Shown: positions 2,359 through 26,635 of the stretch, piece after piece
Layout: each line of letters begins with the position of its first letter
Numbering within the stretch: position 1 is the first letter of the stretch
NCBI GenBank assembly: GCA_964590575.1
Contig: CAZPWM010000038.1
Coordinates: 1 to 26,635 of the forward strand
Direction: 5' to 3'
Length of the DNA stretch: 26,635 nucleotides
Source: an uncultured archaeon
GTDB taxonomy: Archaea; Asgardarchaeota; Thorarchaeia; Thorarchaeales; Thorarchaeaceae
Translations under genes and position numbers: made by a program
The notes under the pieces: model-generated
What the model saw: the letters and a program-made list of their open reading frames with translations, nothing else
The model's database searches: none
What the model was told of the DNA's origin: nothing

Positions 2359-2388
2359 AGTCTATCGATATGATAGGAGCGCTCTGTA

Positions 2389-4299: not shown

Positions 4300-4322
4300 C
4301 CATTTCCTTCCTAGCAGTCTTC

Positions 4323-6262: not shown

Positions 6263-6277
6263 CTCATCTGGAAGAAC

Positions 6278-6886
6278 TCACATCAGAGGACCTTTGTTCT
6301 CTGAAAGTGCTTTTTCCAGTACAACCTCTGCAGTGCGAGTGAACACATTGTCGACCGCATTGCCAGTCTTTGCCGAAGTTTCAAAATACTCTGCTTGGAA
6401 CCAATCGCGTAACATCATTCCGGGCTCGTGAGGAACCATTCTCTTGTCTAATAGGTCCACCTTGTTAGCACTAATTATAACTGGTGAATCAGGACAGACT
6501 TCTTTGAATGATTCAAACCAGTTGTTCATTGCCATGAATGTTTCAGGACGTGTGACATCATACACGACGATGGCTGCTGATGCGCCTTTCATGAATTGTC
6601 TGCGAAGCTCTCTGTAGGTCGATTGACCCCCCATGTCCCATATATTCAAACGAACTTTCCGAACGATACCTTCGCTGTCAGTCACATCAATGTCCTTAGT
6701 GGCGAAGGTTGTTCCAATTGTTTGCTTGTACTCTTCATCAAAGAGGTTCTCAGTGTATCTCCTCACAAGCGATGTTTTTCCTACAGCTGCTTCCCCAAGC
6801 AAAACAACTCGAAACTTATATCCTTCGAAGCCATTGGAATTATCTGCCTCATAAATGGTTTCTGAAGAATCGTTTCTTTGAGTCAT
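6278..6886 (-). CDS. Rab-like small GTPase (second paralog)
   Basis: G1 GEAAVGKTS, TIG, WDMGGQ, NKVD and ETSAK motifs. Confidence 0.95.
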   Translation of the reverse strand: MTQRNDSSETIYEADNSNGFEGYKFRVVLLGEAAVGKTSLVRRYTENLFDEEYKQTIGTTFATKDIDVTDSEGIVRKVRLNIWDMGGQSTYRELRRQFMKGASAAIVVYDVTRPETFMAMNNWFESFKEVCPDSPVIISANKVDLLDKRMVPHEPGMMLRDWFQAEYFETSAKTGNAVDNVFTRTAEVVLEKALSENKGPLM

Positions 6887-6989
6887 GTTAGAGCACCCTA
6901 AATAGTCGCTTGCTGGATATGCAATGACACCTCTCAGTCTTTGTCTTATATCTTTTCTGCGGAGATTCTCATGGGTTTAATTCTATGCT

Positions 6990-10178: not shown

Positions 10179-10504
10179 GTTTCAATCAAAACTCCCAAGC
10201 ACATTTGATTCAGTCGGGATAGACACGCCGATTTACCTCTAATTTGATAGAATGAATGACCCCTTAAGGGTAGTGTGTAAATTGGTGGTTATCCATCCGT
10301 CCTTCACCTGTTTAAACTTGAAACATTGGATTCACCTTTTTAATCTGTCGCCAAAAGCCCATTTCTATAGCAAAAGATAGCTTTCGTGACAGTGTTACGT
10401 CGTAATGTTCAAATACGCCCCCACAGGGTTCTCAGTGAATGACTATTAACCACCTCTGATTTTGATGAAATCAGTAAAACAATAATACCTTGAAGGTGAA
10501 GAAC

Positions 10505-11584
10505 ATGTCCGCAGAAAGACACAAGCTTAGGCGCAAAGTAGAGCAGCTCAAGGCTCACAAAGGACGCCACAGTTCATTCACCACTATTTACATTCCACCT
10601 AGTAAGAACCTTACGGATGTCATCAGCTTTGTGAAGACAGAGCTTGCCGGCGCTGATAATATCAAGAGTAAAGCAAACCGTAAGAATGTATCAGACAATC
10701 TTACAGCTATACTTAGTGAACTCACCAAGATTAACGAGATTCCTGAGAATGGATTAGCTTTTTTCTATGGTGTCGAGGACGAAGGAGGCATAGGGAACAC
10801 GATCCGTGAGATTGTAATTCCACCGACACCAGTATCTCAGTTTATCTATCTATGTGGACGAGAGTTTGTTACTGAAGAACTTGAGAACATGACGAAACCC
10901 AAAAGCCTTGTTGTAATCGTTCTGATAGAAGGTGGGAAAGTTACAGTAGGATACCTCCGTGGAAAGCACATGGAGCTTGTTCGCGATGAAGATTTCTTCA
11001 TCATTGGAAAGACACGCGCTGGTGGTCAATCGGCAAAGCGATACATGCGACTTCGAGATGAGAAGATGATGGAGTTCTTCAAGTTTGTAGGCCGGATGCT
11101 TAACACACTCCTGCTTGAAGATATCGAGAATGTCGATGCAATTGTGTTGGGCGGAAACACAATTAGGGCTCAAGAATTCCTCGAGAAGGGTGATCTTGAC
11201 TATAGACTTCGAGAGAAAGTCGCAGAAACTATCATTCCTGTGAGTATCATCGACGAAACAGGTCTCTATCAAGCAATGAAGGAAGCCTCCAGGATACTTC
11301 GCGAAACCGAAATCTATGTAGAACGGCAGACTTGGGATCAGTTCATGGAGGACTTGATGAAAGGTCTAAACACTGTGACCTACGGCAAGAATGAGGTTAT
11401 GAATGCACTTCACGAAGGTCGAGTGGATACTATAATGGTGCTCGAAGATCTTTCTGACCAGATGGATGAACTCTATGATGAAGTAACCGCATATGGTAGT
11501 AATTTGCTAATCTTTTCAAACCAAACTGAATCTGGAGCACAGCTAAAAGGATTTGGTGGAATAGCTGCTCGACTCCGGTGGTGA
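10505..11584 (+). CDS. prf1: Peptide chain release factor aRF1/eRF1 family
   Basis: NIKS, YxCxxxF (YLCGREF), GGQS and C-terminal FGGIAARLRW motifs; GGTGA RBS before the ATG at 10505. Confidence 0.9.
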   Translation: MSAERHKLRRKVEQLKAHKGRHSSFTTIYIPPSKNLTDVISFVKTELAGADNIKSKANRKNVSDNLTAILSELTKINEIPENGLAFFYGVEDEGGIGNTIREIVIPPTPVSQFIYLCGREFVTEELENMTKPKSLVVIVLIEGGKVTVGYLRGKHMELVRDEDFFIIGKTRAGGQSAKRYMRLRDEKMMEFFKFVGRMLNTLLLEDIENVDAIVLGGNTIRAQEFLEKGDLDYRLREKVAETIIPVSIIDETGLYQAMKEASRILRETEIYVERQTWDQFMEDLMKGLNTVTYGKNEVMNALHEGRVDTIMVLEDLSDQMDELYDEVTAYGSNLLIFSNQTESGAQLKGFGGIAARLRW

Positions 11585-11599
11585 GGATTAACAGATTTG

Positions 11600-12016
11600 C
11601 TAACCTCTTGGTGGTCTAGGCAACCCCCTCAGAGTTTCTATATCCTCAATCCACTTTACAAGCTCATTGCTTATTTCATTGATATATTCCACGAGGGATT
11701 GCTGATACTTCCGCAGATGTTGCTGCTCTAGTTTTTTAGATTTTGCTAGGAAGTCCTTAGCTCTTTTTGGAAATCCGATTGCCCAACGTTGTAGACTGAG
11801 TTCAGCCTTTCTGTCCTCAAGTATTTTCTTCGCTACACTGATTGTACGTTTCTTAGTGATGAGGTCTTCAAGCAACTTTTGGAGCGTAATTGTAGCTGCT
11901 ACAAGCTCCTTTGCGTCTAGTTTTGTGTCTTGATTACGACTCGTATAGTAGACTCGTTTGAGGTCTCTCTTAGCAGTCATCACGTGCGTCAGGAGTCTAG
12001 TCAATGAATGAACCAT
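11600..12016 (-). CDS. Hypothetical basic alpha-helical protein
   Basis: 138-aa ORF that fills the gap; K/R/L-rich helical pattern with no recognised motif. Confidence 0.7.
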   Translation of the reverse strand: MVHSLTRLLTHVMTAKRDLKRVYYTSRNQDTKLDAKELVAATITLQKLLEDLITKKRTISVAKKILEDRKAELSLQRWAIGFPKRAKDFLAKSKKLEQQHLRKYQQSLVEYINEISNELVKWIEDIETLRGLPRPPRG

Positions 12017-12082
12017 GGCATCTTTCTGTAAAGTCTATAACGTAAAAAGGTCTGTGTTGCTGTATTCTCCGGTAATCTAACC

Positions 12083-12739
12083 TTAGACTACAGAAAAATT
12101 ACATCTGCTGTTATACGGACATACTCTACATTGGCTTTGCTCTTGGACTGGTCTTGGTTTTCGTCCTTCATACCACACTTCATCCAACCTATTGAGTATT
12201 TTGAGCAAGCTCATCGGTTTAAAGCTAGTAACGAATTTTTTACTATCACCGCAGTACCAACAATCTTTCATTGATTTACGATTAAGACATCTTCTTGCAT
12301 TGTTTTGCAGGCAATAGATTGTCACGAGCTTTGTTGACGAACATGATACCCCGCTCTCAAGAAGTGCAAGTGCATAAAGTCCTGACTGAAACTCATCTTC
12401 TTTTCTTGCTTGCTTTGGAAGTTGTTTCACAGGAAACTTATACTCAATGATAAGATCCAATATTGGTGCTTTTTCCCAATGAAGCACCGCACCATCAAAC
12501 CTCCCAACATATCTATGACCTAATGACCGCACATTCTCTTCAGAGAAGGAATAATACTGATTGAGTTTCCATCTATTGGGTTCCATTCTAATGAACTCTG
12601 CTAAACTCCCTGGCTCTGAGATTGCCTGCCTCATCTTCATTCCCACTGTAGTAAAACCAGTTCTTGGGTTCAATGCAAGAAGTATGACAATTCCAATAAT
12701 GACTATTAGTACCATTACCTGACTAGCTATGTCACTCAT
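12083..12739 (-). CDS. PD-(D/E)XK nuclease, Cas4/AddB-like catalytic part, with an N-terminal TM helix
   Basis: TM segment VMVLIVIIGIVILLAL; GRFDG...IIEYK; QSGLYA (QxxxY motif); C-terminal CRVCPYNSRC. Confidence 0.8.
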   Translation of the reverse strand: MSDIASQVMVLIVIIGIVILLALNPRTGFTTVGMKMRQAISEPGSLAEFIRMEPNRWKLNQYYSFSEENVRSLGHRYVGRFDGAVLHWEKAPILDLIIEYKFPVKQLPKQARKEDEFQSGLYALALLESGVSCSSTKLVTIYCLQNNARRCLNRKSMKDCWYCGDSKKFVTSFKPMSLLKILNRLDEVWYEGRKPRPVQEQSQCRVCPYNSRCNFSVV

Positions 12740-12743
12740 GTAA

Positions 12744-13013
12744 TCACCAGAAAATCCACAGGAATCCTACAATCAGTGTTACAACAATAACAAGTAAAGG
12801 CACGAGTTGGCTTCCTGAATTCTCAACCTGTCGGTTGTCCAACTTCATCAACACACGCCGGTGCAATTCTGTCCCAGTGACACTCGCAGGTGTATGAGAG
12901 TTACCAAGTTTGTGCTTCAGGTGTAGTCTATATTCACATTGATACTGTGTTCTAAGCTCCGAAACGTCTCGCATCTTGTAGTAGCGCCCTTTTTCTGCTT
13001 CATTCAGCCTCAT
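12744..13013 (-). CDS. Cas4-like N-terminal fragment with a C-terminal TM helix
   Basis: VSELRTQYQCEYRLHL...GTELH matches the Cas4 N-terminal 'S.l..y..C..r...G..lH' pattern; ends in LVPLLVIVVTLIVGFLWIFW. Confidence 0.7.
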   Translation of the reverse strand: MRLNEAEKGRYYKMRDVSELRTQYQCEYRLHLKHKLGNSHTPASVTGTELHRRVLMKLDNRQVENSGSQLVPLLVIVVTLIVGFLWIFW

Positions 13014-13142
13014 ATCAGGTCAGAGTATTGTTTCTAGCAATCCTACAAAAGGACCACCTATCAGACCTAACAGTAGAGATTCACTTATATTCGATGTTTG
13101 AGAAGTTACACCAACAGGATATCGCTACGGAGACCAATGCTG

Positions 13143-13565
13143 ATGTCAGACGAAACCTACGATGGTGCAACCGCCGGAAAAGTTTTAGTTTTTGATGCAA
13201 GTGAAACCGTTAAATTTCCAACTGCCTTCAAAAACGCTATGGGAACTGGTCAAGGACTAATGGTTTTGGTCCATAAAGACCGACTCATCAAGATTTTTCC
13301 TCTTGAGAGTGATGAGGTACTATTTCTCAGTCTTGAGATCGGAAAACTTACGAATGACTTCTTAACCAAACTATCCCAGATTTTCAAGAAAGCCGGTCTC
13401 GTTGATCTCTTATTCTCAACGGGAGTATGTCTCCGCGGAACAAGATGCTTCTACGAGTGTTACTTTAACCCTGGGCAACTAAGTTCGGACCTCTCAGAAC
13501 TTGAGGGTTCACTCAAGAGTCTGGATGGAGTTCAACGCGTAGTCGTTGAACCGGTATCAGTCTAA
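13143..13565 (+). CDS. Hypothetical protein, possibly with a C-terminal ACT-like fold
   Basis: Good ORF. The C-terminal LSQIFKKAGL...LKSLDGVQRVVVE pattern resembles ACT domains. Start could be 13137 or 13143. Confidence 0.65.
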   Translation: MSDETYDGATAGKVLVFDASETVKFPTAFKNAMGTGQGLMVLVHKDRLIKIFPLESDEVLFLSLEIGKLTNDFLTKLSQIFKKAGLVDLLFSTGVCLRGTRCFYECYFNPGQLSSDLSELEGSLKSLDGVQRVVVEPVSV

Positions 13566-13606
13566 GATAGAATCAAGGGGTTTCAAGTAGCATCGGTGCA
13601 TTTTCC

Positions 13607-14293
13607 ATGCAAGGTATTTTCGAATTAATTATAGAAATGATTAGTCAGGGGTATGTAGGTCTTTTCATCATCTGTTTTGCTATCAACATGATTCCATTCC
13701 TCAGCCCAAGTAACATGGTTCTTGCTGGAGCGGCAGTGTTGACATTCTCGATCTTGAGTCCAATTGGACTAACTGAGGCAATCCTCATTGGAATAATAGT
13801 TGCAATCACCGCAACTATGGCTAAATTAATTCATTTCTATATCGTTCGAGGATCTCGAGTAATTCTCTCTGAGGAGCGACTGCGGTCTTTAGATTCTGAA
13901 AAGCAACGTGTAGAGAAATGGGGTGCTCTAGCGCTGTTCATAGCTGCTGCGTCTCCAGTTCCAGATGATCCATTGATTGTCTATGTAGGTCTTACGAAGT
14001 ATAACCCCGTAAAATTCCTCATCAGTTATTTCACCGGAAAAGTGGTTGTGACAATTGCAGGAGCTATCATTGCTCTTTTTGGACTTACCCTGGGTGGAAG
14101 CTTTTTCGAGTCAATGCCCATTGTTGTAGCATCAATTGCTCTTACTGCTATCGTAACTGGAATTCTTTTCAAACGGAAGACTGAAGGAAAAGAATCTGAT
14201 ATGCTCCAAGATTTTCTTGAAGACGAGATGTTTGATGATGAAGATCCATTGGATATGAGTAATGATAGTAATTCCTCAGATACTGAGGATTAA
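13607..14293 (+). CDS. DedA/VTT (SNARE-associated) family membrane protein
   Basis: GLFIICFAINMIPF, KWGALALFIAAASPVPDD and FLISYFTGK motifs; acidic tail. Confidence 0.85.
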   Translation: MQGIFELIIEMISQGYVGLFIICFAINMIPFLSPSNMVLAGAAVLTFSILSPIGLTEAILIGIIVAITATMAKLIHFYIVRGSRVILSEERLRSLDSEKQRVEKWGALALFIAAASPVPDDPLIVYVGLTKYNPVKFLISYFTGKVVVTIAGAIIALFGLTLGGSFFESMPIVVASIALTAIVTGILFKRKTEGKESDMLQDFLEDEMFDDEDPLDMSNDSNSSDTED

Positions 14294-14345
14294 TTGTTTG
14301 TACGGAATTCTTAAGAGGACACCGAAGAACTGCATTGTAGCCTAG

Positions 14346-14750
14346 GTGACAATTTTGGTCGGTACAAGTTTAACAGAAGTGAAATGCTCAAAATGCAAAA
14401 CGGTCTACGAGACCGATGTAATAGATCATGTTGATTTGTCTGAAGACCGAGATTTGATAAAATCCCTAAAAACTGGTAAAGCAAATCGGGCTCAATGTCC
14501 AAAGTGCAAGAAAGTTATGTATTTGCAACGTAGTATTGTTGTAAATTTTGAACCTGAAAATAGAATTGTTGTCTTCGACCCAGATGCTCAAACGAGTAGT
14601 GCAAAAGAGAGTTTCTTAGAGGATTTTAATAGTATAATTTCATTCAACGAAACCCTAAGCGAAGTTGGCGAAGAAACCGATTTCATTGTCATTAGCAAAC
14701 TTGACAAATTCAAGTCAATGCTTGATGACTATCTGAAAGCCTACAAGTGA
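14346..14750 (+). CDS. CpXC-like zinc-ribbon protein
   Basis: CSKC and CPKC pairs separated by an 'L...L..G' helix, as in the CpXC domain. Confidence 0.7.
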   Translation: MTILVGTSLTEVKCSKCKTVYETDVIDHVDLSEDRDLIKSLKTGKANRAQCPKCKKVMYLQRSIVVNFEPENRIVVFDPDAQTSSAKESFLEDFNSIISFNETLSEVGEETDFIVISKLDKFKSMLDDYLKAYK

Positions 14751-14754
14751 TGTT

Positions 14755-15831
14755 CTAGGTTTTTCTTTTTCCCAGTAGGAATTCTTCAACCCATCTCTCT
14801 GCTCTGTACATAGTTGTTGGCGTTGGAGGCATTTTGAATCCATAAGCTGAGATTGATTCTAGAGACCCTCCAATACCTCTCTTCATTGCCAACTTTGTAC
14901 CCCTGATTGCGTCCATGAGAATTGGACCTGCATTAGGCCCATCAGTGACTTCCATCCGGATGTCAATCTTGATCGGAGCTCCACCAAACTGACGACCACC
15001 GATGTAAAAGAATGAGTCCCTTGCGTTCGACATGAAATCTACGAAATCACTTGACCCCGCAACCAATGGTGCATCATAAGGCAGGTCTTGACTAATAGCC
15101 TCACTCTTTACGCCCCTCTTCCTCATCCTTCCCCTATAATGAGAGTCCAAAGACTCCGCACCACCTCCAATATCGAGCTGGTAGCTTTGGTCCACTCTTA
15201 CACCTCTTGAAACAAGGAGTTGGAGAATACTGCGATGAAGTACAGTCGAACCTAGCTGGTCCTGAATATCATCTCCGACTAATGGGAGCCCTTTCTCATT
15301 GAATTTCCTACTCCACTCCAGGTCAGAAGCAATAGAGATTGGGGCACCATTGATAAAAGCACAACCAGCTTCTAGAGCTGCGTTTGCGTAATAGTTGGTC
15401 GCTTTTTCTGCTGAACCGGGAATTAAGTTAATGAGAATGTCGGCTCCAGAATCATTGAGAGCCCTAACGACATCGGCATCTTTGGTCGAAGAAACAGTGA
15501 CAAGTGCCTTGAGCATATCATCGACACCATCAAGCGTAGGACCCTTCATCACCTCAACACCAGTCTTTGGAACTTTTGCAAAAGCCATTACATTGTTGGG
15601 CTTGGCAAAGATAGCTTCTGAAAGATCAAAACCTACCTTGGTGTCAGCTACATCAAAAGCTGCTACAAATTGGATATCCCTCACATGAAATCCAGCAAAG
15701 TCAGGATGTCCAAGGCCAATGACCTCGGTGTTTGCTGTTGCATCCTTGTAAAACTCGACTCCCTGCACAAGTGCACTTGCACAATTGCCTACTCCGCATA
15801 CAGCGACTTTAATTCCATTCAAATGTGCCAC
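14755..15831 (-). CDS. ino1: myo-Inositol-1(3)-phosphate synthase
   Basis: GVGNCASALVQG, FVAAFDV, VGDDIQDQLGST..HR and DGPNAG..MDAIR motifs. Confidence 0.93.
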   Translation of the reverse strand: MAHLNGIKVAVCGVGNCASALVQGVEFYKDATANTEVIGLGHPDFAGFHVRDIQFVAAFDVADTKVGFDLSEAIFAKPNNVMAFAKVPKTGVEVMKGPTLDGVDDMLKALVTVSSTKDADVVRALNDSGADILINLIPGSAEKATNYYANAALEAGCAFINGAPISIASDLEWSRKFNEKGLPLVGDDIQDQLGSTVLHRSILQLLVSRGVRVDQSYQLDIGGGAESLDSHYRGRMRKRGVKSEAISQDLPYDAPLVAGSSDFVDFMSNARDSFFYIGGRQFGGAPIKIDIRMEVTDGPNAGPILMDAIRGTKLAMKRGIGGSLESISAYGFKMPPTPTTMYRAERWVEEFLLGKRKT

Positions 15832-15865
15832 CTCTTGCTCTAGTTCTTCGAAATCCGGCAGATTT

Positions 15866-15894
15866 CTTATAAGTTATTCTATGAGTATAGAATA
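15866..15894. promoter_or_regulatory. TATA-like CTTATAAG with an adjacent 8-bp inverted repeat (possible operator) upstream of ino1
   Basis: CTTATAAG at 15866-15873, followed by TATTCTAT-gagt-ATAGAATA at 15875-15894. Confidence 0.4.
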
Positions 15895-15947
15895 GTTAAG
15901 GTGATAGAACGTGGGGGAAGGACTTATGTTGGTATGTTGCATACAAT

Positions 15948-16196
15948 AGAGTGGACGATGGCTGATGTCTGTTGCTCCCGCATCATCGAAAAGTCGTGGG
16001 AATGATGCAACTGCGTTGAATCGGCGTATACGAATGTCCTCTGCAGGGAAATTCGTGCTCTCACCCCCGAGGGTTCAGAGACGTGTCCTGACAACGTATA
16101 TACTGGAGCACCACTCATGTTCAAAATAACAAAAAGAGGGTGGACCTCGAGCCCGCAAAATCGGGCACCAATTGGCGTCTGCTATCGTCCACCTCT
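15948..16196 (+). ncRNA. Putative structured non-coding RNA of unknown family (about 250 nt)
   Basis: The two ends pair over about 18 bp with three G-U wobbles on the + strand. There are several nested internal stems and no convincing ORF. Confidence 0.6.
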
Positions 16197-16864: not shown

Positions 16865-18025
16865 TCATTTCAGCCTTTCTGCAAGCAAGTCCACCACATC
16901 GACGATACGAATCGAGCTATCAATGAGTGCAGCGCCTGCGATGAGATTATTCTCACAAAATGGACATGCGGTTGCGATTATTTCAGCATCAATGTCTATT
17001 GCACTCTTCACTCTATCTGCAGCCATCTTCTTCGATAGCTCCGCATCATATGAACGAAGACCGCCTCCTGCACCACAGCACATTGCAGTTTCTCTTGTAG
17101 TTTCCATTTCTACGAGATCAACGCCAGGAATCGCCTTGAGTACTTCTCTAGGACTTTCGTAGACCCCTGCTGTTCTTGAGAGATGACATGGGTCATGGTA
17201 TGTTACCCTCGCTCCTTTTTCCAAAGACGTCACTTCGAGTTTATTCTCTTTGATTATTTCCTGTAATAGCTCTGTCACATGCAAAATCTCAGGGAGTTCA
17301 ATACCAAGCTTTGGAAAGTCTAATCTAAGAGTCTTCAAACATCCTGCACAGGTCACGAGAATCTTCTTGGCTCCTGAATTCTTTATGACTTCTGCAAGCT
17401 TCTCTGCATTCTTCTTTGCATCTTCTACTCTTCCTGTTCTAAGCATGACACTACCACAGCAAGGCTCTTCCGCAAGCACTGCAAAATCAATACCCGCTGC
17501 CTTGAGAATTTTCGCTGTGGATTTGGCTATATTAGGTAATCTTATTCCCGCTGTGCAACCGGTGTAATAGAGCAGGTCTCCAGTTGATGGGACTTCGAAA
17601 CCGACTTCTTTGACCCAGTCACGTTTAATTTGGTTGTTTTCCTCATACGGGTTGTCATATTGCATGATCTTTTCAGCTATCGTATCGCGAACATCATTGG
17701 GAATATCACTTAGGACCGCTCTCACCTTCTCAAGGCATTCGGTAGGGTCAAACTCAGCCGCACAGATCTCAGTACAATTCCCACAGAGAGTGCAGGTAAA
17801 AAGTGCTTCAGCGTTCTCAGGTGTTTTTTCAAGAGTTCCATCAAGTAGAGCTAGTGCCACCTGAATTCTACCCCGCATGAAACTGGTTTCAAAACCGGAT
17901 GAATTACGCCAGACTGGACAGACTCCATCAAATCCTCTGTCCTCAAATACCGCATTACGACAGATACCACATCTGCGACATTGCAACAAGTTCTCAATGA
18001 GTTCATCAAGGTCTATCTCTGACAT
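16865..18025 (-). CDS. Fe-S oxidoreductase, GlcF/HdrD-like (two 4Fe-4S motifs and two CCG domains)
   Basis: CRRCGIC...VCP, CTLCGNCTEIC, YYTGC, CCG, YHDPCHL, CCGAGGG and TACPFC motifs. Confidence 0.92.
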   Translation of the reverse strand: MSEIDLDELIENLLQCRRCGICRNAVFEDRGFDGVCPVWRNSSGFETSFMRGRIQVALALLDGTLEKTPENAEALFTCTLCGNCTEICAAEFDPTECLEKVRAVLSDIPNDVRDTIAEKIMQYDNPYEENNQIKRDWVKEVGFEVPSTGDLLYYTGCTAGIRLPNIAKSTAKILKAAGIDFAVLAEEPCCGSVMLRTGRVEDAKKNAEKLAEVIKNSGAKKILVTCAGCLKTLRLDFPKLGIELPEILHVTELLQEIIKENKLEVTSLEKGARVTYHDPCHLSRTAGVYESPREVLKAIPGVDLVEMETTRETAMCCGAGGGLRSYDAELSKKMAADRVKSAIDIDAEIIATACPFCENNLIAGAALIDSSIRIVDVVDLLAERLK

Positions 18026-18028: not shown

Positions 18029-19424
18029 TTAGATTCCTCCTAAGACACCTAGGTTCATTATATTGTTCGGGTCAATTGAGTTCTTGAGGAACCGGAGGAA
18101 TGCCATGTAGCCGTCCATGTCTTCGATGGCATCTTTCCAAAACTCAGCAAGTTTGAATGGTACTGCGCCAGATCTGAACAACTTCTTTGCAATTTCCTTA
18201 TGGGCTTCTACTACCTTCTTTTCCTCTTCTTTGTCTTGTGGGTCAAAGTAAAGGTGTGGATAAAGGTTCATAGAGCTGTGTCCACTATGAAACCCTGCAG
18301 TATGCCCTAGGAATCTGTATTTATCCATCACTTCCATGATGATATCTACTGACTTGTGTGAATTGGTTGGGGTCTGATGATGGTAAAGTATTTTCCAGTG
18401 CCAACCATGAGCGTATGAAGCTCGAACAAAATTCCAGAAGCGGCCTTCCCATTCCTGCTGTGGCATCTCACTAACGCCCAGCACTTTTCCCCCGAGTTTC
18501 TCGCAAATCTCACAAGCAAGTTTGGCATCACTCTTCATCATATCCTCGCGAACTCTACCTATTGTCATCGACACTGTGCGATTCGAGTACTCAAAACTTG
18601 GAAATCCAAGTTCCTCAGAAAGCATATCCATGAACAAGTCAAGAACTTCGCCCGAATAGAGCGAAGCAAAGAGACTGTTAATATCATTCTGCTTTACCTC
18701 GACCAGAAATTGCTCGGCCTGAGCTGCAGTATCAAATCCATACATATTGTAATCGAAGAACTTCATTCGTTTGAACGTCTTCATCGATGCCTTTGTGATT
18801 ATACCAAAACTTCCGAGCGAGCCAATGAACAAACCAGTGATATCAGGTCCAAATGCGTAGCGAATGAAAGGCCCTGGCGCATTAGGGTTTGCCTCTGACC
18901 CAGTCTGGATGATTGAACCATCAGGTAGTACAACCTCGAGCCCCAATACCATCTCACCGATGCAACCGAATAGACTTGATCCTGGCCCCGCACCATTAAC
19001 TGCAATGTTACCTGCCACTGTGCAAACTAGTGCGGACTCTGGATAGACTGGAAGGAAGAGGTCATGTTTTTTCCAATTCTCCATAGGTGACTCCTGCTCC
19101 AACTGTCACGGATCGAAGGTTCTCATAGAGTTTTATTCCTCCAAGTCTCAGCAGATCAACCACTAAACCCCCCGGTTTGGGAATTGCTTCTCCCTGAAGA
19201 CTTGAACCTCCTGATCGTGGAGTCACTGGTATCTTGTACTGATTCGCTAGTTTCAGAATCTGAGACACTTCGAGAGTATTTGCTGGCCGAACGACAGCAG
19301 CTGGAATGACTGGTTCGACTGCCAAGGATGCAGTCTGAGAATAGGTCAACAACACATCTGCTCTTGTTGATACAAATTCAACCCCAACTATTTCTTCAAA
19401 CTTCTTGATTATCTTCTCATTCAT
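18029..19424 (-). pseudogene. FAD-linked oxidase (GlcD/D-2-hydroxyacid dehydrogenase-like), interrupted by a frameshift near 19067-19072
   Basis: The N-terminal ORF (PAAVVRP, PRSGGSSLQG, VGAGVTYGEL) and the C-terminal ORF (HDLFLPVYP..CTVAGNIAVNGAG, LEVVLPDG, FIGSLGSFGIITK, DPNNIMN) are consecutive parts of one protein in different frames. Confidence 0.8.
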
Positions 19425-19447: not shown

Positions 19448-19774
19448 TTAGAAAATGTGTTTTATCTTCACTAGATCAGAGGTTGCACCTTTCACCTTCA
19501 ATTTCCGTTTAACAATAGCTGAAATTGCACTCATTTCTTCGAGGAAGAGCTTACGAATTGTATCCTCGTCACTCAGAATTCTCATATCCGGATTAGCAAT
19601 GGGTCCTTCATGTACTGTGATATTATTGTCCTTGACAATGAAGTGATATTCCGGTCCTTCCTTCAAAGTGAGTTGTGCTGTCCTCTCCCATCCTTCGATG
19701 GCTTCTTTAGTTTTATCTCGTTCAAGTCCAATAGCGATTCGTTCTCGCATGAGTTCTAGCAAGTCTTGATTCAT
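19448..19774 (-). CDS. SCP2 sterol/lipid-binding domain protein
   Basis: VHEGPIANPDMRI and SAIVKRKLKVKG..DL match the SCP2 pattern. Confidence 0.8.
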   Translation of the reverse strand: MNQDLLELMRERIAIGLERDKTKEAIEGWERTAQLTLKEGPEYHFIVKDNNITVHEGPIANPDMRILSDEDTIRKLFLEEMSAISAIVKRKLKVKGATSDLVKIKHIF

Positions 19775-19832: not shown

Positions 19833-20483
19833 CTAGCTTCTGTACCTTTTCACAATATCAAGGAATTTCATGACGTTCTCTGTTATTACCTCAAATTTAC
19901 CTTCTTTGATAGCTTTCTTGTCAGTAATAGCGCTGCCTACTCCAAGTGCATAAGCTCCTGCCTCGAGCATAGGTCCCGCTGTTTCTAGGTCCACTCCTCC
20001 TGTCGGTACAAGTGGTATTTGCGGCAGAGGCCCTCTGATTGCTTTGAGATACTCCGCTCCTCCCAAATTACCACAAGGAAAGACCTTCACTGCATCTGCA
20101 CCTAATGTGTAGGCATCAAAAATCTCTGTGGGAGTCAGAGCTCCTGGGATTATAGGTTTTCCATGTTTGATAGCAGTTTCAATCAGGTCTCGAGAGTAGT
20201 TTGGACTTACGATAAACTCACTTCCTGCTTTGATTACTTCTTCTGCCATCCTTCCGTTAACAACTGTACCAGTTCCTATGAGTACTTTATCACCAAAATT
20301 CTCTATTAGCTGTTTCACGACATCAACTGCACCAGGAACGCTCATGGTCACTTCTATGATATTAACATCTCCGTCTAGAAATGCATCTGCAACTTTGAAG
20401 GCTGTTTCAGCTGATTCGACCCGGATTATTGGAATGAGTCCTGTGTCATAAATCAGTTTCATCGTTTTTTCCTTTGTCCACAT
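19833..20483 (-). CDS. eda: KDPG/KHG aldolase (bacterial Eda type)
   Basis: IIEVT, IGTGTV, FIVSP, PGALTPTEI, VKVFP and PTGGV motifs. Confidence 0.93.
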   Translation of the reverse strand: MWTKEKTMKLIYDTGLIPIIRVESAETAFKVADAFLDGDVNIIEVTMSVPGAVDVVKQLIENFGDKVLIGTGTVVNGRMAEEVIKAGSEFIVSPNYSRDLIETAIKHGKPIIPGALTPTEIFDAYTLGADAVKVFPCGNLGGAEYLKAIRGPLPQIPLVPTGGVDLETAGPMLEAGAYALGVGSAITDKKAIKEGKFEVITENVMKFLDIVKRYRS

Positions 20484-20489
20484 CTAAAA

Positions 20490-21485
20490 TCACCTATCGA
20501 TTCGAAGACCTCTTTCACGTCCCTTGATTAACTTCTCTACCTCTGACTTGTAGACAAAAGCAAGGTCTCCTGGAACTGAGTGCTTCAATGCAGAAAATGC
20601 TGAACCAAAATCTACAGCTTTCTGTATATCTTTTAACTCAAGATATCCGTAGATGAATCCCGCACTGCAGGAGTCACCTCCGCCTAGACGATCCACAACC
20701 TCGATGTCATAGACCGGACTTTTGTAGGCTTTGCCATCAGAATACGCAAAGACTGACCATTTATTCATCCAGACCGATGGGGTTTCTCTGAGTGTAATGA
20801 CAACAACGTCGAATCCAAAAGTATCAATCAATTTTGCTGCCACGTCTTCGTAGTCTTTTCCTTCAATTCCATAGACAACTTTGGTGTCTTCTTCAGTTGT
20901 AATCAAAATGTCGATGTACTCGGATGCTGGTTCAGTAAACTTCTGAGCTTCTTTCGGAGTCCAAAGTTTTCCTCGATAGTTGACGTCGTAAGAAACCTTT
21001 ACCCCTTGTTCTTTTGCCATCTTGAGCGCTTCATCAGTTGCGTCAGCACAATTGGAACTCAGTGCAGGTGTAATTCCACTAGTGTGAAATAGTTTAGTAC
21101 CTTCCAGGATTTTCTTCCAATCAATCTCTCCCGGTTTTATTTTACTGATGGCTGACTCCTTACGGTCATAGATGACTCGATTTGTTCTCGGAGCTGCCCC
21201 AAACTCAACAAAGTATACTCCACATCGACTGTCTGGGTCCCAGAGAATATGGGAGGTATCAACTCCATGTTCACGTGCTTTATTTCGAATGAAATGACCA
21301 ATGGAGTTGTCACCTAGTTTAGTGACATAGGCAGAGTTCAGCTCTAGTCTAGCACAGGCGACTGCTACATTCATCTCAGCGCCGCCTGCGTGCGCAATGA
21401 AGCTGTCAGTCTGTTCAAATCTCTTGAAGTCAGGAGGAGAGAGGCGAAGCATCACTTCTCCAAAGGTAACTACGTCATATCGCAT
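20490..21485 (-). CDS. kdgK: 2-keto-3-deoxygluconate kinase (PfkB family)
   Basis: FGEVMLRLSP, GGAEMNVA, SGITPALS, DVNYRGKLW and VDRLGGGDS motifs. Confidence 0.9.
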   Translation of the reverse strand: MRYDVVTFGEVMLRLSPPDFKRFEQTDSFIAHAGGAEMNVAVACARLELNSAYVTKLGDNSIGHFIRNKAREHGVDTSHILWDPDSRCGVYFVEFGAAPRTNRVIYDRKESAISKIKPGEIDWKKILEGTKLFHTSGITPALSSNCADATDEALKMAKEQGVKVSYDVNYRGKLWTPKEAQKFTEPASEYIDILITTEEDTKVVYGIEGKDYEDVAAKLIDTFGFDVVVITLRETPSVWMNKWSVFAYSDGKAYKSPVYDIEVVDRLGGGDSCSAGFIYGYLELKDIQKAVDFGSAFSALKHSVPGDLAFVYKSEVEKLIKGRERGLRIDR

Positions 21486-21561
21486 CAGTCGCAACTCAAT
21501 ACTTGTTTAACATCTACATACTATCTCATGGAAATGTTAAATCTGCCGTTGAGACTGGTCT

Positions 21562-23874
21562 TCAAGAGAATTCAGTTCGTGCTATTACTTCATCTTGCAC
21601 GAATGGATCAAGCTCAATGAAGTATGCACTATATCCTGCGACTCGAACAATTAAGTCTCTGTGTTGCATTGGGTTCAATTTTGCATCTTCAAGGGTTTCT
21701 CGTGAAACCACATTAAATTGAACATGGAAACCTCCCATTTCAAAGTAAGCGTCAATCATGCTGATGAATTTCTTTCTCCTGGATTCGGTATCGAAAAAGT
21801 CGGGTGTAAATTTCATGTTGTAGAGGGTGCCGTTGTAGCACAAAGCATGATCAAGTCTAGCAACAGATTTCATCGCTGCCGTTGGCCCATTTACATCTCT
21901 ATTTTGAGTAGGTGAAACACCATCGGATATCATGTAACCAGATTTTCGACCATCAGGTGTTGCTCCAAGGACTTCCCCTTGTGGAATATACATAGAAACA
22001 GAGAAGAGAGCTCCATGATAAGGTCCGTTTCTAGTTGTCATCCTATTTTGAATCGAGTTGCAGAATGCCCTCCCAGTATCCCTTGCAAGAAAGTCTACTC
22101 TTTCAATATCATTACCGTACTTTGAAGGATCATTCTCTAGTTTGACCCTAAGTTCTTCTTTTCCCTCATAGTCATTGGCGAGGATTTTAAGCAACTCATC
22201 CATCGATATCTCATTTTCTTCGAAGACGAATTTTCGAAGTACTTCTAGCGAGTCTGCTACTATAGCGATGCCAACTCCCATGATTCCCCCAGAGTTATAG
22301 AATGCTCCACCTTGCTGCAGGGTCTTTCCAGACTGATTGCAACCTTCAAGAAGTGATGATATGAATGGAGTGGGTGTATGCTCTGAAAGAATCCCAGCTG
22401 CGACTCTGTCCGCACGTGTTAGCAACTCTATTGTGTAGTCAATCTGTTCCTCGAATGCCAACCATAGATCATCAAATGTGGTGAAACTTCGAGGGTCTCC
22501 TGTTTCTCGACCGACAAGTTCACCAGTCTTTGGATCCTTACCATTATTCAGGGTGACCTCCAGTATCTTTGGTAGGTTCACATATCCAATATTCTGCCGC
22601 GGGTCAGATTTGCCGCCAATAATTGGTTCAACGCAACCGAGTATTGAATAATCATGCGCTTCTGCTGGATCGGTTCCCTTTTCATGCATCATAGGAATTA
22701 TTGCATCATCGTTGAACAGACCCGGTATCCCAAGACCTTTTGAGATTACATCCACCACTTGTAGTTTGATATCTTCAGGGGTGTTCTTATGCCATCGGAA
22801 CGAAACACTCGGTTGAGTGACTCTGATGTTTGCTGTAGCTTGAAGAATTAATCTAGTGAGGTCATTAGATGCATCAGTCCCATCCGCCTTTTGACCTCCA
22901 ATAGTGAGGTTCTGAAACATTGGATGGCCAGCAAATGCGATACTATAGTATTCATTTCTTATCTTGATAAGAGCTGTCAGTTTAACCCAAAGAACTTCTA
23001 GGAGTTCCAACGCATAGTCCTTGTCTATCCGTCCATTTCTGATATCATACTCATAGAATGGATACATATACTGGTCAAATCTGCCAGTAGACATGGAATG
23101 TCCATTTGACTCGGTCTGTACCAGCAAATGAATAAACCAGAATGACTGGAGTGCTTCTTGAAAAGTTTCTGCAGGTTCAGCTGGAACCTTCTTACAGATC
23201 CGAGCTATCTCGAGTAGCTCATCTTTTCGGTTTTCATCCGATTCTTTCTCTGCTAATTCCGTAGCTAGATGAGAGAATCGTTCTGCGAACCTAAGTACCG
23301 CATCTATTTCTGTTCTGACCGCCTCATAATAGACATCTTCTTTCCCTTGAATTTCTTCAAGAATCCCTCTGAAACCGTATGTCAGAATTTTCTCATAATC
23401 AACGATGACATGTCCGATACCTGTTCCTGGAGCTCCAATTGTGTATAGACCTGCTCTCGAAGCTTGGATTGATTCCTTAGGCATTGCAGTTCCTGCAATC
23501 TCAGCTGTGCTCTTTCCCTCCCAGAATTTGAAGACTATTCGGAGCTTATTCTTGTCTTCATCACTGATTCGGAAGCGTTCAGTTCTCCTTTTGTCAAACC
23601 TGTCGAGTTCCTCTTCAATCCATTTCCAGCTGTACTCTGGAAACACCTGGCAAGAACGGGGTGTTGGTCCCATGTTGCCAACGATTAATTCCTCGGGCTC
23701 TATTCTAATTGTCATATTATCAAGAACATGGGCAAAACCACCAGCGAGACGTAATATTGGATGTAAAGACCAGTTATCCTTAACATACTCAGTAAAGAGG
23801 ACCGCTCTCTCTGACGAAATCGTAGGCTCTGACTCAAGCATCGTTTGTTTGAGTCGTTTACTCCGGGAGGTCAT
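21562..23874 (-). CDS. Glycyl-radical enzyme, PFL2/glycerol-dehydratase-like
   Basis: Gly loop LIVRVAGYSAYF, single-Cys loop GCVEP, ESNGHS and FAGHPMFQNL. A GGAG RBS supports the start at 23874. Confidence 0.93.
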   Translation of the reverse strand: MTSRSKRLKQTMLESEPTISSERAVLFTEYVKDNWSLHPILRLAGGFAHVLDNMTIRIEPEELIVGNMGPTPRSCQVFPEYSWKWIEEELDRFDKRRTERFRISDEDKNKLRIVFKFWEGKSTAEIAGTAMPKESIQASRAGLYTIGAPGTGIGHVIVDYEKILTYGFRGILEEIQGKEDVYYEAVRTEIDAVLRFAERFSHLATELAEKESDENRKDELLEIARICKKVPAEPAETFQEALQSFWFIHLLVQTESNGHSMSTGRFDQYMYPFYEYDIRNGRIDKDYALELLEVLWVKLTALIKIRNEYYSIAFAGHPMFQNLTIGGQKADGTDASNDLTRLILQATANIRVTQPSVSFRWHKNTPEDIKLQVVDVISKGLGIPGLFNDDAIIPMMHEKGTDPAEAHDYSILGCVEPIIGGKSDPRQNIGYVNLPKILEVTLNNGKDPKTGELVGRETGDPRSFTTFDDLWLAFEEQIDYTIELLTRADRVAAGILSEHTPTPFISSLLEGCNQSGKTLQQGGAFYNSGGIMGVGIAIVADSLEVLRKFVFEENEISMDELLKILANDYEGKEELRVKLENDPSKYGNDIERVDFLARDTGRAFCNSIQNRMTTRNGPYHGALFSVSMYIPQGEVLGATPDGRKSGYMISDGVSPTQNRDVNGPTAAMKSVARLDHALCYNGTLYNMKFTPDFFDTESRRKKFISMIDAYFEMGGFHVQFNVVSRETLEDAKLNPMQHRDLIVRVAGYSAYFIELDPFVQDEVIARTEFS

Positions 23875-23921
23875 CTCTACTCCTCTGTTTTTTTTATTCA
23901 TTACTCTTCGCATCTGGCAAA

Positions 23922-25082
23922 CTAGTGCAATAATTTAGGCAGATAGCTATCCAGTATACTTAGAGCTTCGTTTATTTTCTCAGTTGAAACCGCATAACAG
24001 AGTCTGATGAATCCCTCACCAAAATCTCCGAAGGCTGTACCATGGACTGTAACGACATTAGTTTCCTTCAGGATTTTGTGAACAAGGTCATATGATTTCA
24101 TACCATAAGCAGACACATCTGGGAATGCATAGAATGCTCCTCCAGGAGGTGGCATATCGATACCCTCAATGTCATTGAGTCCTTTTGTGATTAAGTCACG
24201 TCGTTTTCGGAACGTTTGAAGCATTTCATCAACGCAGTCTTGAGGACCAATAGCTGCAGCCGCTGCGGCTTTTTGAGCAATTGAAGTTGGCATTGCTATA
24301 ACATGTTCTTGCAGTTTGGTCATCGCGCCTATTAGTTCACTGGAACCTGTTGCTACAGCAATACGCCATCCTGTCATTGCGTATGTCTTAGAGAGAGAAA
24401 ATATCGAGACCGTTCTTTCTTTCATTCCCGGAAGCGAACCTATGAATAGAGGCTTTTCATCTACATATCTGAATTTCTCATAAGCTTCATCTGCAACGAC
24501 ATAGATGTCCTTCTCAATACACAACTCTGCAATTTGTTTCAATTCCTTGTTAGAAGTGACTCCCCCAGTGGGATTGTTTGGTGAATTAAGCACAATCATT
24601 TTTGTTTTTGGAGTGATTTTTCTTGCAACATCTTCTGCAGTGAGTCCGAATCCATTCTCCTTCTTTATTTCAACAGGAACAGGAACTCCCTGGGCGAGTT
24701 TGATGTGTGCATAGTGGCTCACGAAACCAGGGTCTGGGTATATCACTTCATCACCTGGGTTCACAAGAATCAAATTAGCAAGAACGAGAGCTCCCATTCC
24801 ACCTGCTGTGCAGATTAATTCGTTCGCAGGATCTGCAATAATGTTGTTATCGCGTTTCAGTTTCTTTGCAAGAGCTTCTCGAACATCAATGTAACCTGCA
24901 TTGTGGGTGTACCTTGTGAATCCTTCGTCAAGAGCTTTCTTTGCCGCATCCTTGATGTGCTCAGGAGTATCAAAATCAGGGATGCCAACTGTCATATCAA
25001 TTACATCGGTTCTTCCAATGATTATGTTGAAGATTTTTCGGATTTCACTAGCGGGAACATCTACGTTTCTATCAGCAAGCAT
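23922..25082 (-). CDS. PLP-dependent class I/II aminotransferase (AspC-like)
   Basis: GIPDFDTP, NSPNNPTG, DEAY and SLSKTYAMTGWRI motifs. Start at ATG 25082, with TTATATAA at 25121-25128 upstream. Confidence 0.93.
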   Translation of the reverse strand: MLADRNVDVPASEIRKIFNIIIGRTDVIDMTVGIPDFDTPEHIKDAAKKALDEGFTRYTHNAGYIDVREALAKKLKRDNNIIADPANELICTAGGMGALVLANLILVNPGDEVIYPDPGFVSHYAHIKLAQGVPVPVEIKKENGFGLTAEDVARKITPKTKMIVLNSPNNPTGGVTSNKELKQIAELCIEKDIYVVADEAYEKFRYVDEKPLFIGSLPGMKERTVSIFSLSKTYAMTGWRIAVATGSSELIGAMTKLQEHVIAMPTSIAQKAAAAAAIGPQDCVDEMLQTFRKRRDLITKGLNDIEGIDMPPPGGAFYAFPDVSAYGMKSYDLVHKILKETNVVTVHGTAFGDFGEGFIRLCYAVSTEKINEALSILDSYLPKLLH

Positions 25083-25120
25083 CAGTAACACCCAACTGGA
25101 CGTGCAGGGATATTGCGAGT

Positions 25121-25189
25121 TTATATAACCTATCGAATGGACCTCTTTAGTTAAAGAAACAACAAAATGGCTCTCAGAGAGAGTTTTAA
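25121..25189. promoter_or_regulatory. Divergent promoter region with two TATA-like boxes
   Basis: TTATATAA at 25121-25128 (for the minus-strand operon) and TTTTAA at 25184-25189 (for the plus-strand gene pair). Confidence 0.45.
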
Positions 25190-25238
25190 GATACATATCC
25201 AATTAGTGGAATCAACTCTCAATGGAACGTGTTGAACC

Positions 25239-25712
25239 ATGTCGAATCCAAGTGCTGATGATGTTCGAAGAGCTAACATGAATACACTCGCAGACACTCA
25301 TGTAATCTATGTTGAAGCTATTCGTAGATTGACGGGTGATAAAGGATTGAAAGCTATTAGCGAAGCAAACCGACTTCACGGTCTGGAACTCGGCAAGACA
25401 GGTATCAAACAAGGGACGTTGAAGAAAGGAGACCTGCTTTCCATATTCCAGTTCTTTGATGGTGCTCATCCTTTCTTCGGTTTTAAGCTCTCTATAGGCG
25501 ACCAAACTGACAAGAGGTTCGACCTAAAGGTGACATATTGTCCTTGGTTAGAGTCATTTAAGGCTCGAGGTGCTGGTTCGGACATATGTCAATATGTGAC
25601 TAAGATAGACGAGGGAATCGGTCAGGCTGTGGACCCAGATGTAAAATTGTCAATTCCTAAATGTATGATGCGCGGTGATGATCATTGTATCTATCGCTGG
25701 GAGAAGGAGTGA
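25239..25712 (+). CDS. L-2-amino-thiazoline-4-carboxylate hydrolase-like (V4R-related) protein
   Basis: VTYCPW, ICQYVTKID.G and CMMRGDDHCIYRW Cys pattern. Confidence 0.75.
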   Translation: MSNPSADDVRRANMNTLADTHVIYVEAIRRLTGDKGLKAISEANRLHGLELGKTGIKQGTLKKGDLLSIFQFFDGAHPFFGFKLSIGDQTDKRFDLKVTYCPWLESFKARGAGSDICQYVTKIDEGIGQAVDPDVKLSIPKCMMRGDDHCIYRWEKE

Positions 25713-25717: not shown

Positions 25718-26386
25718 ATGACAACTGATAGGAATACCATCATTGAACGAACAATGAAACTCTATGTGGCCGCACTGTCTGATGCCGCAGACGAGATAGG
25801 GCTTGAAAATGTGTGCATGGACAGAGGGATTGCTCCCCTAACCCTGAACAAACGAATGGCTGGATTTGCAAGAACTGGAAAACTAACCCGCTCTCCAGCT
25901 AATAGCCCATATGACGAGAAACAACTGGATGTCTTCATGAGTCTTGGAACTAAGGCAGTCGAAGGTGATCTACTTGTTATCGATATGGCTGGTGCAACAG
26001 ATTGCTCAGCTTGGGGTCAGATATTGACGAAGATTGGAATTTCAAAAGGTGTCCGAGGTGCTGTTATTGATGGGACTTCCAGAGATATACATGAAATCGA
26101 TAAAATGAACTTCACAGTCTTTGCCCGCGGGCGTCATCCTGGAACTATGAGAGGTCGCCTAGATATGGAGTCTGTTCAGAAACCCATTGTCTGTGGTGGA
26201 GTGACTGTAAATCCCGGTGACTTAGTCTTTGGAGATGGAGATGGAGTCGTGGTCATTCCTGCAAATATCATTCAAGAAGTCCTTTCGCACGCAGAGGAGG
26301 TTGTTGCTACTGATGATTGGTGGTCTGACAAACTAGACGATGGCGAAGATCCACATGAACTTCACAAAGAGAAACCCATTCCCTGA
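25718..26386 (+). CDS. RraA/HMG aldolase family protein
   Basis: AALSDA, SAWGQ, GAVIDG.SRD and GGVTVNPGDLVFGDGDGVVVIP motifs. Confidence 0.9.
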   Translation: MTTDRNTIIERTMKLYVAALSDAADEIGLENVCMDRGIAPLTLNKRMAGFARTGKLTRSPANSPYDEKQLDVFMSLGTKAVEGDLLVIDMAGATDCSAWGQILTKIGISKGVRGAVIDGTSRDIHEIDKMNFTVFARGRHPGTMRGRLDMESVQKPIVCGGVTVNPGDLVFGDGDGVVVIPANIIQEVLSHAEEVVATDDWWSDKLDDGEDPHELHKEKPIP

Positions 26387-26391: not shown

Positions 26392-26634
26392 TCACTTGAG
26401 GGGATATACACCTCTTATTATGGCATAGTCATACAATTCCAGAATCTGTTCAGGAGTAGACTCTGGCTGGATATTGTGTGCGGGCGCAAGTATATACCCT
26501 CCACCGTGTGCAAGTGCATTTATTCGTTTGTCAACCTCTTTACGCAAATCATCAAGAGTACCCTGAGCTGACATCGCATGCTGAAGATCTATACCTCCAT
26601 GAAATGTCAGTTTATCTCCATACTTCTCCTTTAG
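26392..26634 (-). CDS. Uroporphyrinogen decarboxylase/MtaA-CmuA family protein, C-terminal part (truncated by the window edge)
   Basis: The frame is open to the edge: LKEKYGDKLTFHGGIDLQ...GGGYILAPAHNIQPESTPE. Confidence 0.85.
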   Translation of the reverse strand, partial: LKEKYGDKLTFHGGIDLQHAMSAQGTLDDLRKEVDKRINALAHGGGYILAPAHNIQPESTPEQILELYDYAIIRGVYPLK

Positions 26635-26635
26635 C

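Follow-up and report, generated by a model that had tools for sequence, protein, structure and literature searches.

A glycyl-radical enzyme gene kept and lost together with kdgK and eda in Thorarchaeaceae: a candidate radical entry into sugar-acid catabolism

The DNA stretch analyzed here, referred to as the window, comprises the 26,635 nucleotides of contig CAZPWM010000038.1 (C38) from the genome of an uncultured archaeon of the Thorarchaeaceae (GCA_964590575.1, hereafter G000; 3.4 Mb, 194 contigs, 91.5% complete). It encodes a glycyl-radical enzyme (GRE) directly upstream of kdgK and eda, the genes for 2-keto-3-deoxygluconate (KDG) kinase and for an aldolase acting on KDPG (2-keto-3-deoxy-6-phosphogluconate). 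The GRE-kdgK-eda operon is real, conserved and testable. Since relatives keep, lose or break the three genes together, the GRE likely makes the substrate of KdgK and Eda, and its product probably reaches these enzymes within one or two steps. As best explanation, the GRE may represent a radical sugar-acid dehydratase making KDG from an aldonate, e.g., gluconate or mannonate. This assignment is held tentatively, as slightly short of an even chance.

In order to evaluate the linkage of the three genes, GRE loci were examined from all 53 relatives with a listed GRE match. Among loci with enough sequence, kdgK was located no more than 300 bases after the GRE gene in 43 of 47 cases, and 45 of the 47 had it within 5 kb; eda was present in 42 of 44 GRE loci, and an aminotransferase (AT) gene precedes the GRE gene in 46 of 49. 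Because kdgK follows and AT precedes the GRE gene this regularly, the gene order is not a product of chance. An earlier note on this DNA, prepared from the sequence alone, had proposed the linkage with the reservation that it might be unique to this genome; it is a family-wide feature. Both GRE loci lacking kdgK come from a single genus, whose AT, kdgK and eda genes sit together elsewhere. Moreover, GRE and kdgK are separated by an inserted gene for a multi-PAS histidine kinase of 1147 aa in two genomes of one genus (L130, 11372-14815, and L132). Regarding co-occurrence in the 76 relatives, 51 genomes encode both GRE and KdgK and 21 neither, with two discordant genomes of each kind, among the matches listed. 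In three of these four the partner gene is a contig-end fragment, and the fourth genome is 66% complete. Among five further genomes, three feature GRE and kdgK and two feature neither.

Gene losses are informative in this respect. In three genomes (G257, G161 and G224) the AT gene is directly followed by genes for thioredoxin and EamA, which in their congeners G203 and G143 lie downstream of eda; GRE, kdgK and eda were hence lost as a block. Furthermore, in G055 (97% complete; loci L127 and L153) the GRE gene contains three stop codons, kdgK contains two and eda is frameshifted, at two unlinked loci, with AT and flanking housekeeping open reading frames (ORFs) remaining intact. Neither an activase nor an ortholog of the cluster's uroporphyrinogen decarboxylase (URO-D)-fold gene was found in G055, which represents a pathway in decay. 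Joint loss and joint decay support the functional connection between the GRE and KdgK/Eda suggested in the earlier note. AT was retained without GRE, kdgK and eda in four genomes, and its place on the pathway is therefore weakened.

The GRE gene likely starts at the ATG at 23874, 13 codons into its ORF and downstream of a GAGGAG ribosome-binding motif; residue numbers given here follow the 783-aa ORF (23913-21562), and 13 has to be subtracted for the 770-aa protein. Its product fits the pyruvate formate-lyase (PFL)-like GREs, featuring the RVAGY glycine loop, the Cys loop and the ten-stranded barrel, with invariant motifs, and it scored 731.5 bits against TIGR01774 (cut-off 678.2). The predicted model (pLDDT 91.9) superimposes on glycerol dehydratase 1r8w with a TM-score of 0.97, and its best matches are glycerol and propanediol dehydratases at 40-42% identity. 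The motif reading of the earlier note was largely confirmed: the single-Cys GCVEP loop and the ESNGHS and FAGHPMFQNL segments are present, the enzyme is not a true PFL (single Cys; 163 bits against TIGR01255, cut-off 994), and glycerol and propanediol dehydratases are its nearest solved relatives. The His of FAGHP, described there as unusual, proved to be variable (His330; 41 His, 10 Phe and 1 Tyr in 52 sequences, 111 His and 9 Phe in 120). It aligns with Tyr336 of glycerol dehydratase, outside the catalytic residues named in a recent GRE review (PMC13450708), and was rejected as a specificity residue.

Assignment to a GRE of known function was evaluated by means of family models. The HypD model NF043068 yielded 601.7 bits (cut-off 1100), and the NCBIfam cut-offs for HpfG, HpsG, CutC, PflD-type enzymes and decarboxylases were likewise not reached (598 and 545 vs 1000; 572 vs 1050; 579 vs 1109; 412 vs 1100; 350 vs 1150). 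Identity to solved HpyG, HpzG, HplG and YbiW enzymes is 31-35%, and a true HpyG ortholog (locus L253) scored 1165 bits. The earlier note had also considered that the GRE might fall into a characterized cluster with an unrelated substrate; it falls into none of those tested, as it passed the broad TIGR01774 cut-off but no cut-off of a characterized GRE, and identity to the closest solved relatives is about 42%. It presumably acts in the manner of a GRE C-O eliminase and belongs to no characterized subfamily tested. Among clusters at 50% identity (1.84 billion representatives), its own cluster scored 1301 bits and the next one 653, the other 149 listed showing at most 46% identity. Within 301 genomes of the phylum, among the matches listed, the GRE occurs at an identity of at least 64% in 53 of 76 other family genomes and in none outside the family, where the best match reaches 41%; 326 weaker matches beyond those listed may hide fragments. 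Close homologs are labelled mostly as Thorarchaeota, a few as other Asgard archaea, and many are unlabelled.

Concerning the active site, Cys427-Val-Glu429 was found as in GRE 1,2-eliminases in all 52 clade sequences, and all 120 close homologs carry Asp437-x-Arg439 (D-x-R). Based on alignment to 1r8w, residues His164, His281, Ser282, Cys433 and Glu435 of glycerol dehydratase are kept and clade-invariant. Its Tyr339, Asp447, Tyr640 and Ser642, which we take to be pocket residues, are replaced by Phe333, Asn441, Phe637 and Val639. Phe and Val are also found in propanediol dehydratase at the Tyr339 and Ser642 columns, and the WHD strand of that enzyme is replaced by RQN; Phe, Val and WHD presumably form a propanediol dehydratase signature of diagnostic value. 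Arg439 occupies the Cys+12 column, where YbiW-like enzymes also carry an Arg that presumably binds the substrate anion.

The kdgK gene is present in single copy in G000, and its best PDB match is a KDG kinase (2afb, E 6e-85). Its GGAExN, YDR, DVNYR and GGGD motifs, which are assumed to be those of KDG kinases (GGAExN, YDR, DxNYR, GxGD), show no or almost no variation across 43 sequences, and with a mean identity of 86% it is the best-conserved gene. Scores stayed below the NCBIfam equivalog cut-offs (NF041332, 307 vs 440; the fusion model NF041633, 386 vs 700). The aldolase is of the Eda type, as the earlier note had stated (TIGR01182, 183.6 vs cut-off 156), with invariant catalytic Glu and Schiff-base Lys motifs, and no paralog was found in G000. 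A KDPG aldolase of the Eda type is likewise employed by haloarchaea, and the horizontal transfer suggested in the earlier note is therefore no more than a possibility. Conversion of KDG to pyruvate and glyceraldehyde-3-phosphate by KdgK and Eda is established family chemistry, and Eda also cleaves 4-hydroxy-2-oxoglutarate (KHG).

Another supplier of KDG was sought genome-wide. The earlier note had pointed out that the operon encodes neither IlvD nor an enolase-type dehydratase, and the same applies to the whole genome: in G000 (91% complete) no IlvD, UxuA, UxaA, KduI or DgaE was found, positive controls having worked, and no MR/enolase-type dehydratase above cut-off. The canonical gluconate dehydratase of the semi-phosphorylative Entner-Doudoroff pathway was not found in G000 by this search, whose scope excluded alginate-type reductases and short-chain dehydrogenase/reductase (SDR) routes to KDG. 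Of 86 family genomes, 6 encode IlvD and 28 encode MR_MLE enzymes, none of 58 encodes UxaA, and 32 of 53 kdgK-positive relatives lack both IlvD and MR_MLE (hand count). IlvD and MR_MLE were rejected as suppliers because their occurrence does not track kdgK. The same holds for a fold-type III pyridoxal phosphate (PLP) enzyme (PF14031), which is present in G000 and 44 of 58 relatives and absent from 7 searched genomes of two kdgK-positive genera; its family presumably includes a glucosaminate dehydratase. Regarding a glucose dehydrogenase upstream in the Entner-Doudoroff pathway, several Zn dehydrogenases are encoded in G000 as possible candidates. In another Asgard family, genes for a Zn dehydrogenase, a UxaA/GarD-family dehydratase, KdgK and an aldolase of the dihydrodipicolinate synthase family are arranged in a row (L156, genome G090). 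Downstream of lokiarchaeal-type kdgK homologs (about 40-47%; L158-L169), a BKACE-family gene and SDR genes take the place of eda, and no GRE gene was found among the listed neighbors in the loci examined.

Considering these results, the following reaction sequence is proposed for the putative aldonate dehydratase. The single activase encoded elsewhere in G000 would install the radical on Gly760, and the resulting thiyl radical of Cys427 would take the hydrogen from C2 of the aldonate. By analogy with the proposal for glycerol dehydratase, Glu429 would deprotonate the C2 hydroxyl and His168 would donate a proton to the departing C3 hydroxyl; Arg439 would hold the substrate carboxylate, so that a 2-keto-3-deoxy acid would be formed in one step. 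KdgK would then phosphorylate C6, and Eda would split the product into pyruvate and glyceraldehyde-3-phosphate. The GRE would thereby fill the gluconate-dehydratase slot in the lower half of the semi-phosphorylative Entner-Doudoroff pathway. According to PMC13450708, Glu435 and His164 fulfil the acid-base roles in diol dehydration by glycerol dehydratase.

Several observations weigh against an aldonate as substrate. The cluster lacks both a conserved source of aldonates and a conserved transporter for sugar acids; an amino-acid permease usually occupies the transporter role, and a Zn dehydrogenase was detected in only 5 of 53 loci. The URO-D-fold gene is nearly always part of the cluster (39 of 40 loci), and genes for MttB-family, corrinoid, MtaA-like and RACo proteins occur beside the cluster's URO-D-fold, ATC-hydrolase-like or permease genes at L270, L274, L279, L281, L115, L119 and L278. 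Owing to Phe333, Phe637, Val639 and Met641, the pocket is less polar than that of glycerol dehydratase, which does not obviously appear to be what a six-carbon polyhydroxy acid needs. In G152 a frameshifted kdgK lies beside an intact GRE gene, two other genes there also being split. Moreover, all compared genomes are kin and incomplete metagenome-assembled genomes, and tallies are not independent; the record of joint occurrence and loss therefore amounts to a handful of events rather than dozens.

Further evidence originates from a bacterial sister clade of D-x-R GREs in Synergistota and Desulfobacterota, in which D-x-R was found in 99 of 101 sequences. It groups with the Thorarchaeota GRE clade and two smaller ones at an SH support value of 97 (FastTree, 56 rows, effectively unrooted). 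Its pairing with the N-methylhydroxyproline dehydratase HpyG speaks against plain gluconate. Evidence from this clade favors carboxylate substrates for the group, but at the same time makes a nitrogenous or methylated substrate more likely. Having lost both His168 and Ser273, the sister enzyme need not catalyze the same reaction. In Synergistota (L251-L264, L171, L175-L177 and L061), activase-GRE-GRE-activase blocks comprise one HpyG ortholog and one D-x-R GRE; such blocks were observed in 17 of 201 Synergistota genomes, accompanied by EamA, TRAP or Liv transporters. The D-x-R GRE of Synergistota is a candidate new GRE in cultivable bacteria.

A nitrogenous or methylated substrate, i.e., an amino-sugar acid or an N- or O-methylated sugar acid from which the GRE would likewise feed KdgK and Eda, is regarded as rather unlikely. 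In the nitrogen variant, a HypD-like loss of the 3-hydroxyl of glucosaminate would yield an imine and, by hydrolysis, KDG; in the methyl variant, AT and the URO-D-fold, MttB and corrinoid proteins would take part in processing the sugar acid. Such substrates would agree with the constancy of the URO-D-fold and AT genes, the amino-acid permease in the cluster, the methyltransferase-type genes near cluster genes of some relatives and the HpyG and transporter partners of the sister clade, and the changes toward hydrophobic residues in the pocket could accommodate a methyl group. However, MttB and corrinoid genes are not located near the cluster in G000, where the sole MttB homolog is 28% identical, and AT persists in the four genomes without GRE and kdgK. 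Moreover, the GRE keeps the diol-type His/His/Ser/Glu set, of which the sister clade lost two members.

Dehydration of a neutral polyol or sugar, or of a short diol or acid such as glycerol, propanediol, glycerate or tartrate, appears improbable. FAD (flavin adenine dinucleotide)-linked oxidases, dehydrogenases or the RraA-like enzyme would then link the product either with KDG or with pyruvate and triose, which Eda forms. The closest solved relatives act on glycerol and propanediol, Phe333 and Val639 match propanediol dehydratase residues of assumed diagnostic value, and the cluster encodes two GlcD/GlcF-like pairs as well as an RraA-like protein. Replacement of Asp447 and Tyr640 of glycerol dehydratase and the added invariant Arg argue against such substrates, as does the lack of the downstream FAD oxidase in 13 of 41 loci; furthermore, KdgK would be left without a direct supplier. 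Finally, the cluster might degrade a hydroxy-amino acid: Eda or the RraA-like aldolase would receive KHG or some related keto acid from AT, a cyclic hydroxy-imino acid would be the substrate of the GRE, and the kinase would use another one. Such a role would suit the KHG activity of Eda, the AT, RraA-like, GlcD/GlcF-like and permease genes of a glyoxylate-yielding route and the HpyG neighbors of the sister clade, but is highly doubtful given that the kinase keeps KDG-kinase motifs and has a KDG kinase as best solved relative, that G000 possesses a separate HypD above cut-off, and that GRE, kdgK and eda were lost as one block without AT.

The operon does not encode an activase. G000 possesses one radical S-adenosylmethionine activase, located beside another GRE gene in the region 20739-24124 of contig C41, and three GREs in total, namely the operon GRE, a paralog on contig C11 and the unassigned one on C41. 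The C11 paralog represents HypD (1235.8 bits against NF043068). Activase genes were detected in 73 of 86 family genomes, mostly in single copy, with only 24 candidates per genome being scored. Sharing of an activase would depart from the usual picture of one activase per enzyme.

Coordinates of the operon and its neighboring features are summarized in Table 1.

Table 1. Features of the GRE-kdgK-eda operon and adjacent cluster genes in the window.
Feature	Position	Strand	Basis or remark
Class I PLP aminotransferase (AT)	23922..25082	-	usually first operon gene
GRE, 770 aa, predicted glycerol-dehydratase-like 1,2-eliminase, lineage-specific clade	21562..23874	-	TIGR01774, 1r8w, model
Cys loop and next strand of GRE: Cys427, Glu429, Asp437, Arg439, Asn441	22591..22635	-	invariant in 52/52 clade sequences
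Radical-bearing Gly760 of GRE in RVAGY	21634..21636	-	PF01228
kdgK, 2-keto-3-deoxygluconate kinase, PfkB family, Thermotoga type	20490..21485	-	PDB 2afb, motifs
eda, KDPG/KHG aldolase, Eda type	19833..20483	-	TIGR01182, catalytic motifs
SCP2-like small protein, accessory	about 19448..19774	-	PF02036
GlcD-like FAD-linked oxidase, accessory, split in window	18029..19424	-	profile matches
GlcF-like 4Fe-4S/CCG protein, accessory	16865..18025	-	profile matches
Divergent intergenic region; putative TATA-like TTATATAAA about 38 bases upstream of AT start	25083..25238		sequence reading, putative
ATC-hydrolase-like small protein, divergent, in conserved cluster	25239..25712	+	PF14196; 33/43 loci
RraA-like protein (HMG/KHG aldolase or oxaloacetate decarboxylase family), start approximate	25718..26386	+	PF03737; 37/41 loci
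URO-D-fold (methyltransferase-like) protein, C-terminal end	26392..26635	-	39/40 loci; remainder on contig C21

The seven co-directional genes listed in the earlier note (AT, GRE, kdgK, eda, SCP2, FAD oxidase and Fe-S protein) were all found in place on the minus strand. AT, GRE, kdgK and eda are arranged head to tail, with gaps, calculated as start-to-end coordinate differences, of 48 (AT/GRE), 77 (GRE/kdgK), 7 (kdgK/eda) and 59 (eda/SCP2). The tail composed of the SCP2 (27 of 40 loci), FAD oxidase (28 of 41) and Fe-S genes is a looser, accessory part of the operon; the GlcF-like protein likely partners the FAD oxidase. The latter is represented by two ORFs in the window (120 and 357 aa), its counterparts in relatives having 468-478 aa. 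Contigs from three of four sequencing runs carry 11 extra bases at 19067/19071, which are missing in run X2 at a depth of 2.8. Since three runs carry these bases and relatives are full-length, the split at 19062-19102 likely reflects an 11-base assembly gap, and the reading as a pseudogene was rejected on the basis of the extra bases. A promoter and terminator scan, applying a bacterial model to an archaeal host, yielded nothing above shuffled sequences. The nearest solved relative of AT is an archaeal aromatic aminotransferase, and its clade-invariant positions include SH, GM and QEH. In the ESM Atlas, the URO-D-fold protein matched only URO-D clusters.

The cluster continues on contig C21 with a second FAD oxidase/Fe-S pair and the amino-acid permease gene. 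This region (L170, positions 1-16000) also harbors ThiS-like and Mrr-like genes preceding the permease gene, which is followed by two S-methyl-thiohydantoin-desulfurase-like genes and genes for a hydantoin racemase, a major facilitator superfamily transporter and a luciferase-like protein. Elsewhere in the window, two Ras/Roc-family small GTPases, typical Asgard genes, are encoded at 4323-4922 and 6278-6886, and an inositol-1-phosphate synthase at 14755-15831. Further genes encode an eRF1-like protein (10490-11584), a PD-(D/E)XK nuclease-like protein (12083-12739), RadA, geranylgeranyl reductase, PurA and PheS/PheT. A 249-aa protein with a Pro/Ala/Thr-rich linker (5085-5834) had no Pfam match.

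The available part of the GRE review of June 2026 (PMC13450708) lists six C-O eliminases, none of which acts on a sugar acid, and the word 'gluconate' is absent from that text. It describes PFL-like GREs of known function as all bacterial and archaeal ones as an open gap. Full-text searches, in a library without most subscription papers and judged from listings and the beginnings of abstracts, brought up no publication dealing with a GRE that acts as a sugar-acid dehydratase or with this cluster. If correct, the proposed function would add a radical route into sugar-acid catabolism and would point to a carbon source used by a lineage that is widespread in sediments and related to eukaryotes; even with a nitrogenous or methylated acid as substrate, the GRE reaction would be new. 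In a wider picture, D-x-R GREs may constitute a group acting on carboxylates, with this GRE as its first readable member and one activase shared among the GREs of the cell. Thorarchaeota may enter an Entner-Doudoroff-type route via a metal-free radical replacement of the IlvD, enolase-type, UxuA and UxaA dehydratases, which would be the first assignable function of an archaeal PFL-like GRE. This wider proposal falls just short of being probable. Downstream KdgK and Eda provide a ready coupled assay, and the function of this archaeal GRE is therefore directly testable.

Compared with known systems, the GRE has the same fold as the Clostridium butyricum B12-independent glycerol dehydratase (PDB 1r8w/1r9d; TM 0.97, 42% identity), including His164, His281, Ser282, Cys433, Glu435 and the Gly loop. 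It differs in Tyr339>Phe, Trp445>Arg, Asp447>Asn, Tyr640>Phe and Ser642>Val, in a shorter Gly/Pro loop before His164, in the lack of an adjacent activase and in its linkage to kdgK-eda. GRE 1,2-propanediol dehydratase (PDB 5i2a/5i2g, 9rco) likewise has the same fold at about 40-41% identity; in the archaeal enzyme, RQN replaces its WHD strand, the Tyr640 equivalent is lost, and no microcompartment genes were found among the annotated neighbors. The sister clade of Synergistota and Desulfobacterota (P0121, L053, L061) shares the D-x-R-x-N/H strand and FAGxPxFQN at 42% identity, but shows His168>Asn and Ser273>Ala, has its own activase and usually occurs in tandem with an HpyG ortholog; neither kdgK nor eda was found in its compared loci. 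In the semi-phosphorylative Entner-Doudoroff pathway of Haloferax volcanii, as described in PMC10838023, KDG kinase and then KDPG aldolase give rise to pyruvate plus glyceraldehyde-3-phosphate, as proposed here, whereas in the thorarchaeal genome, in which no canonical gluconate dehydratase was found, the GRE would take its slot. In the anhydroglycolysis of YbiW/PflD enzymes, according to PMC13450708, a GRE likewise readies a sugar-type substrate for a downstream aldolase, and the Arg at Cys+12 is shared. The thorarchaeal GRE is about 34-35% identical to these enzymes and scores below the NF007437 cut-off; they act on phosphorylated rings and are combined with another aldolase, whereas in the thorarchaeal case phosphorylation by the kinase would follow the GRE step.

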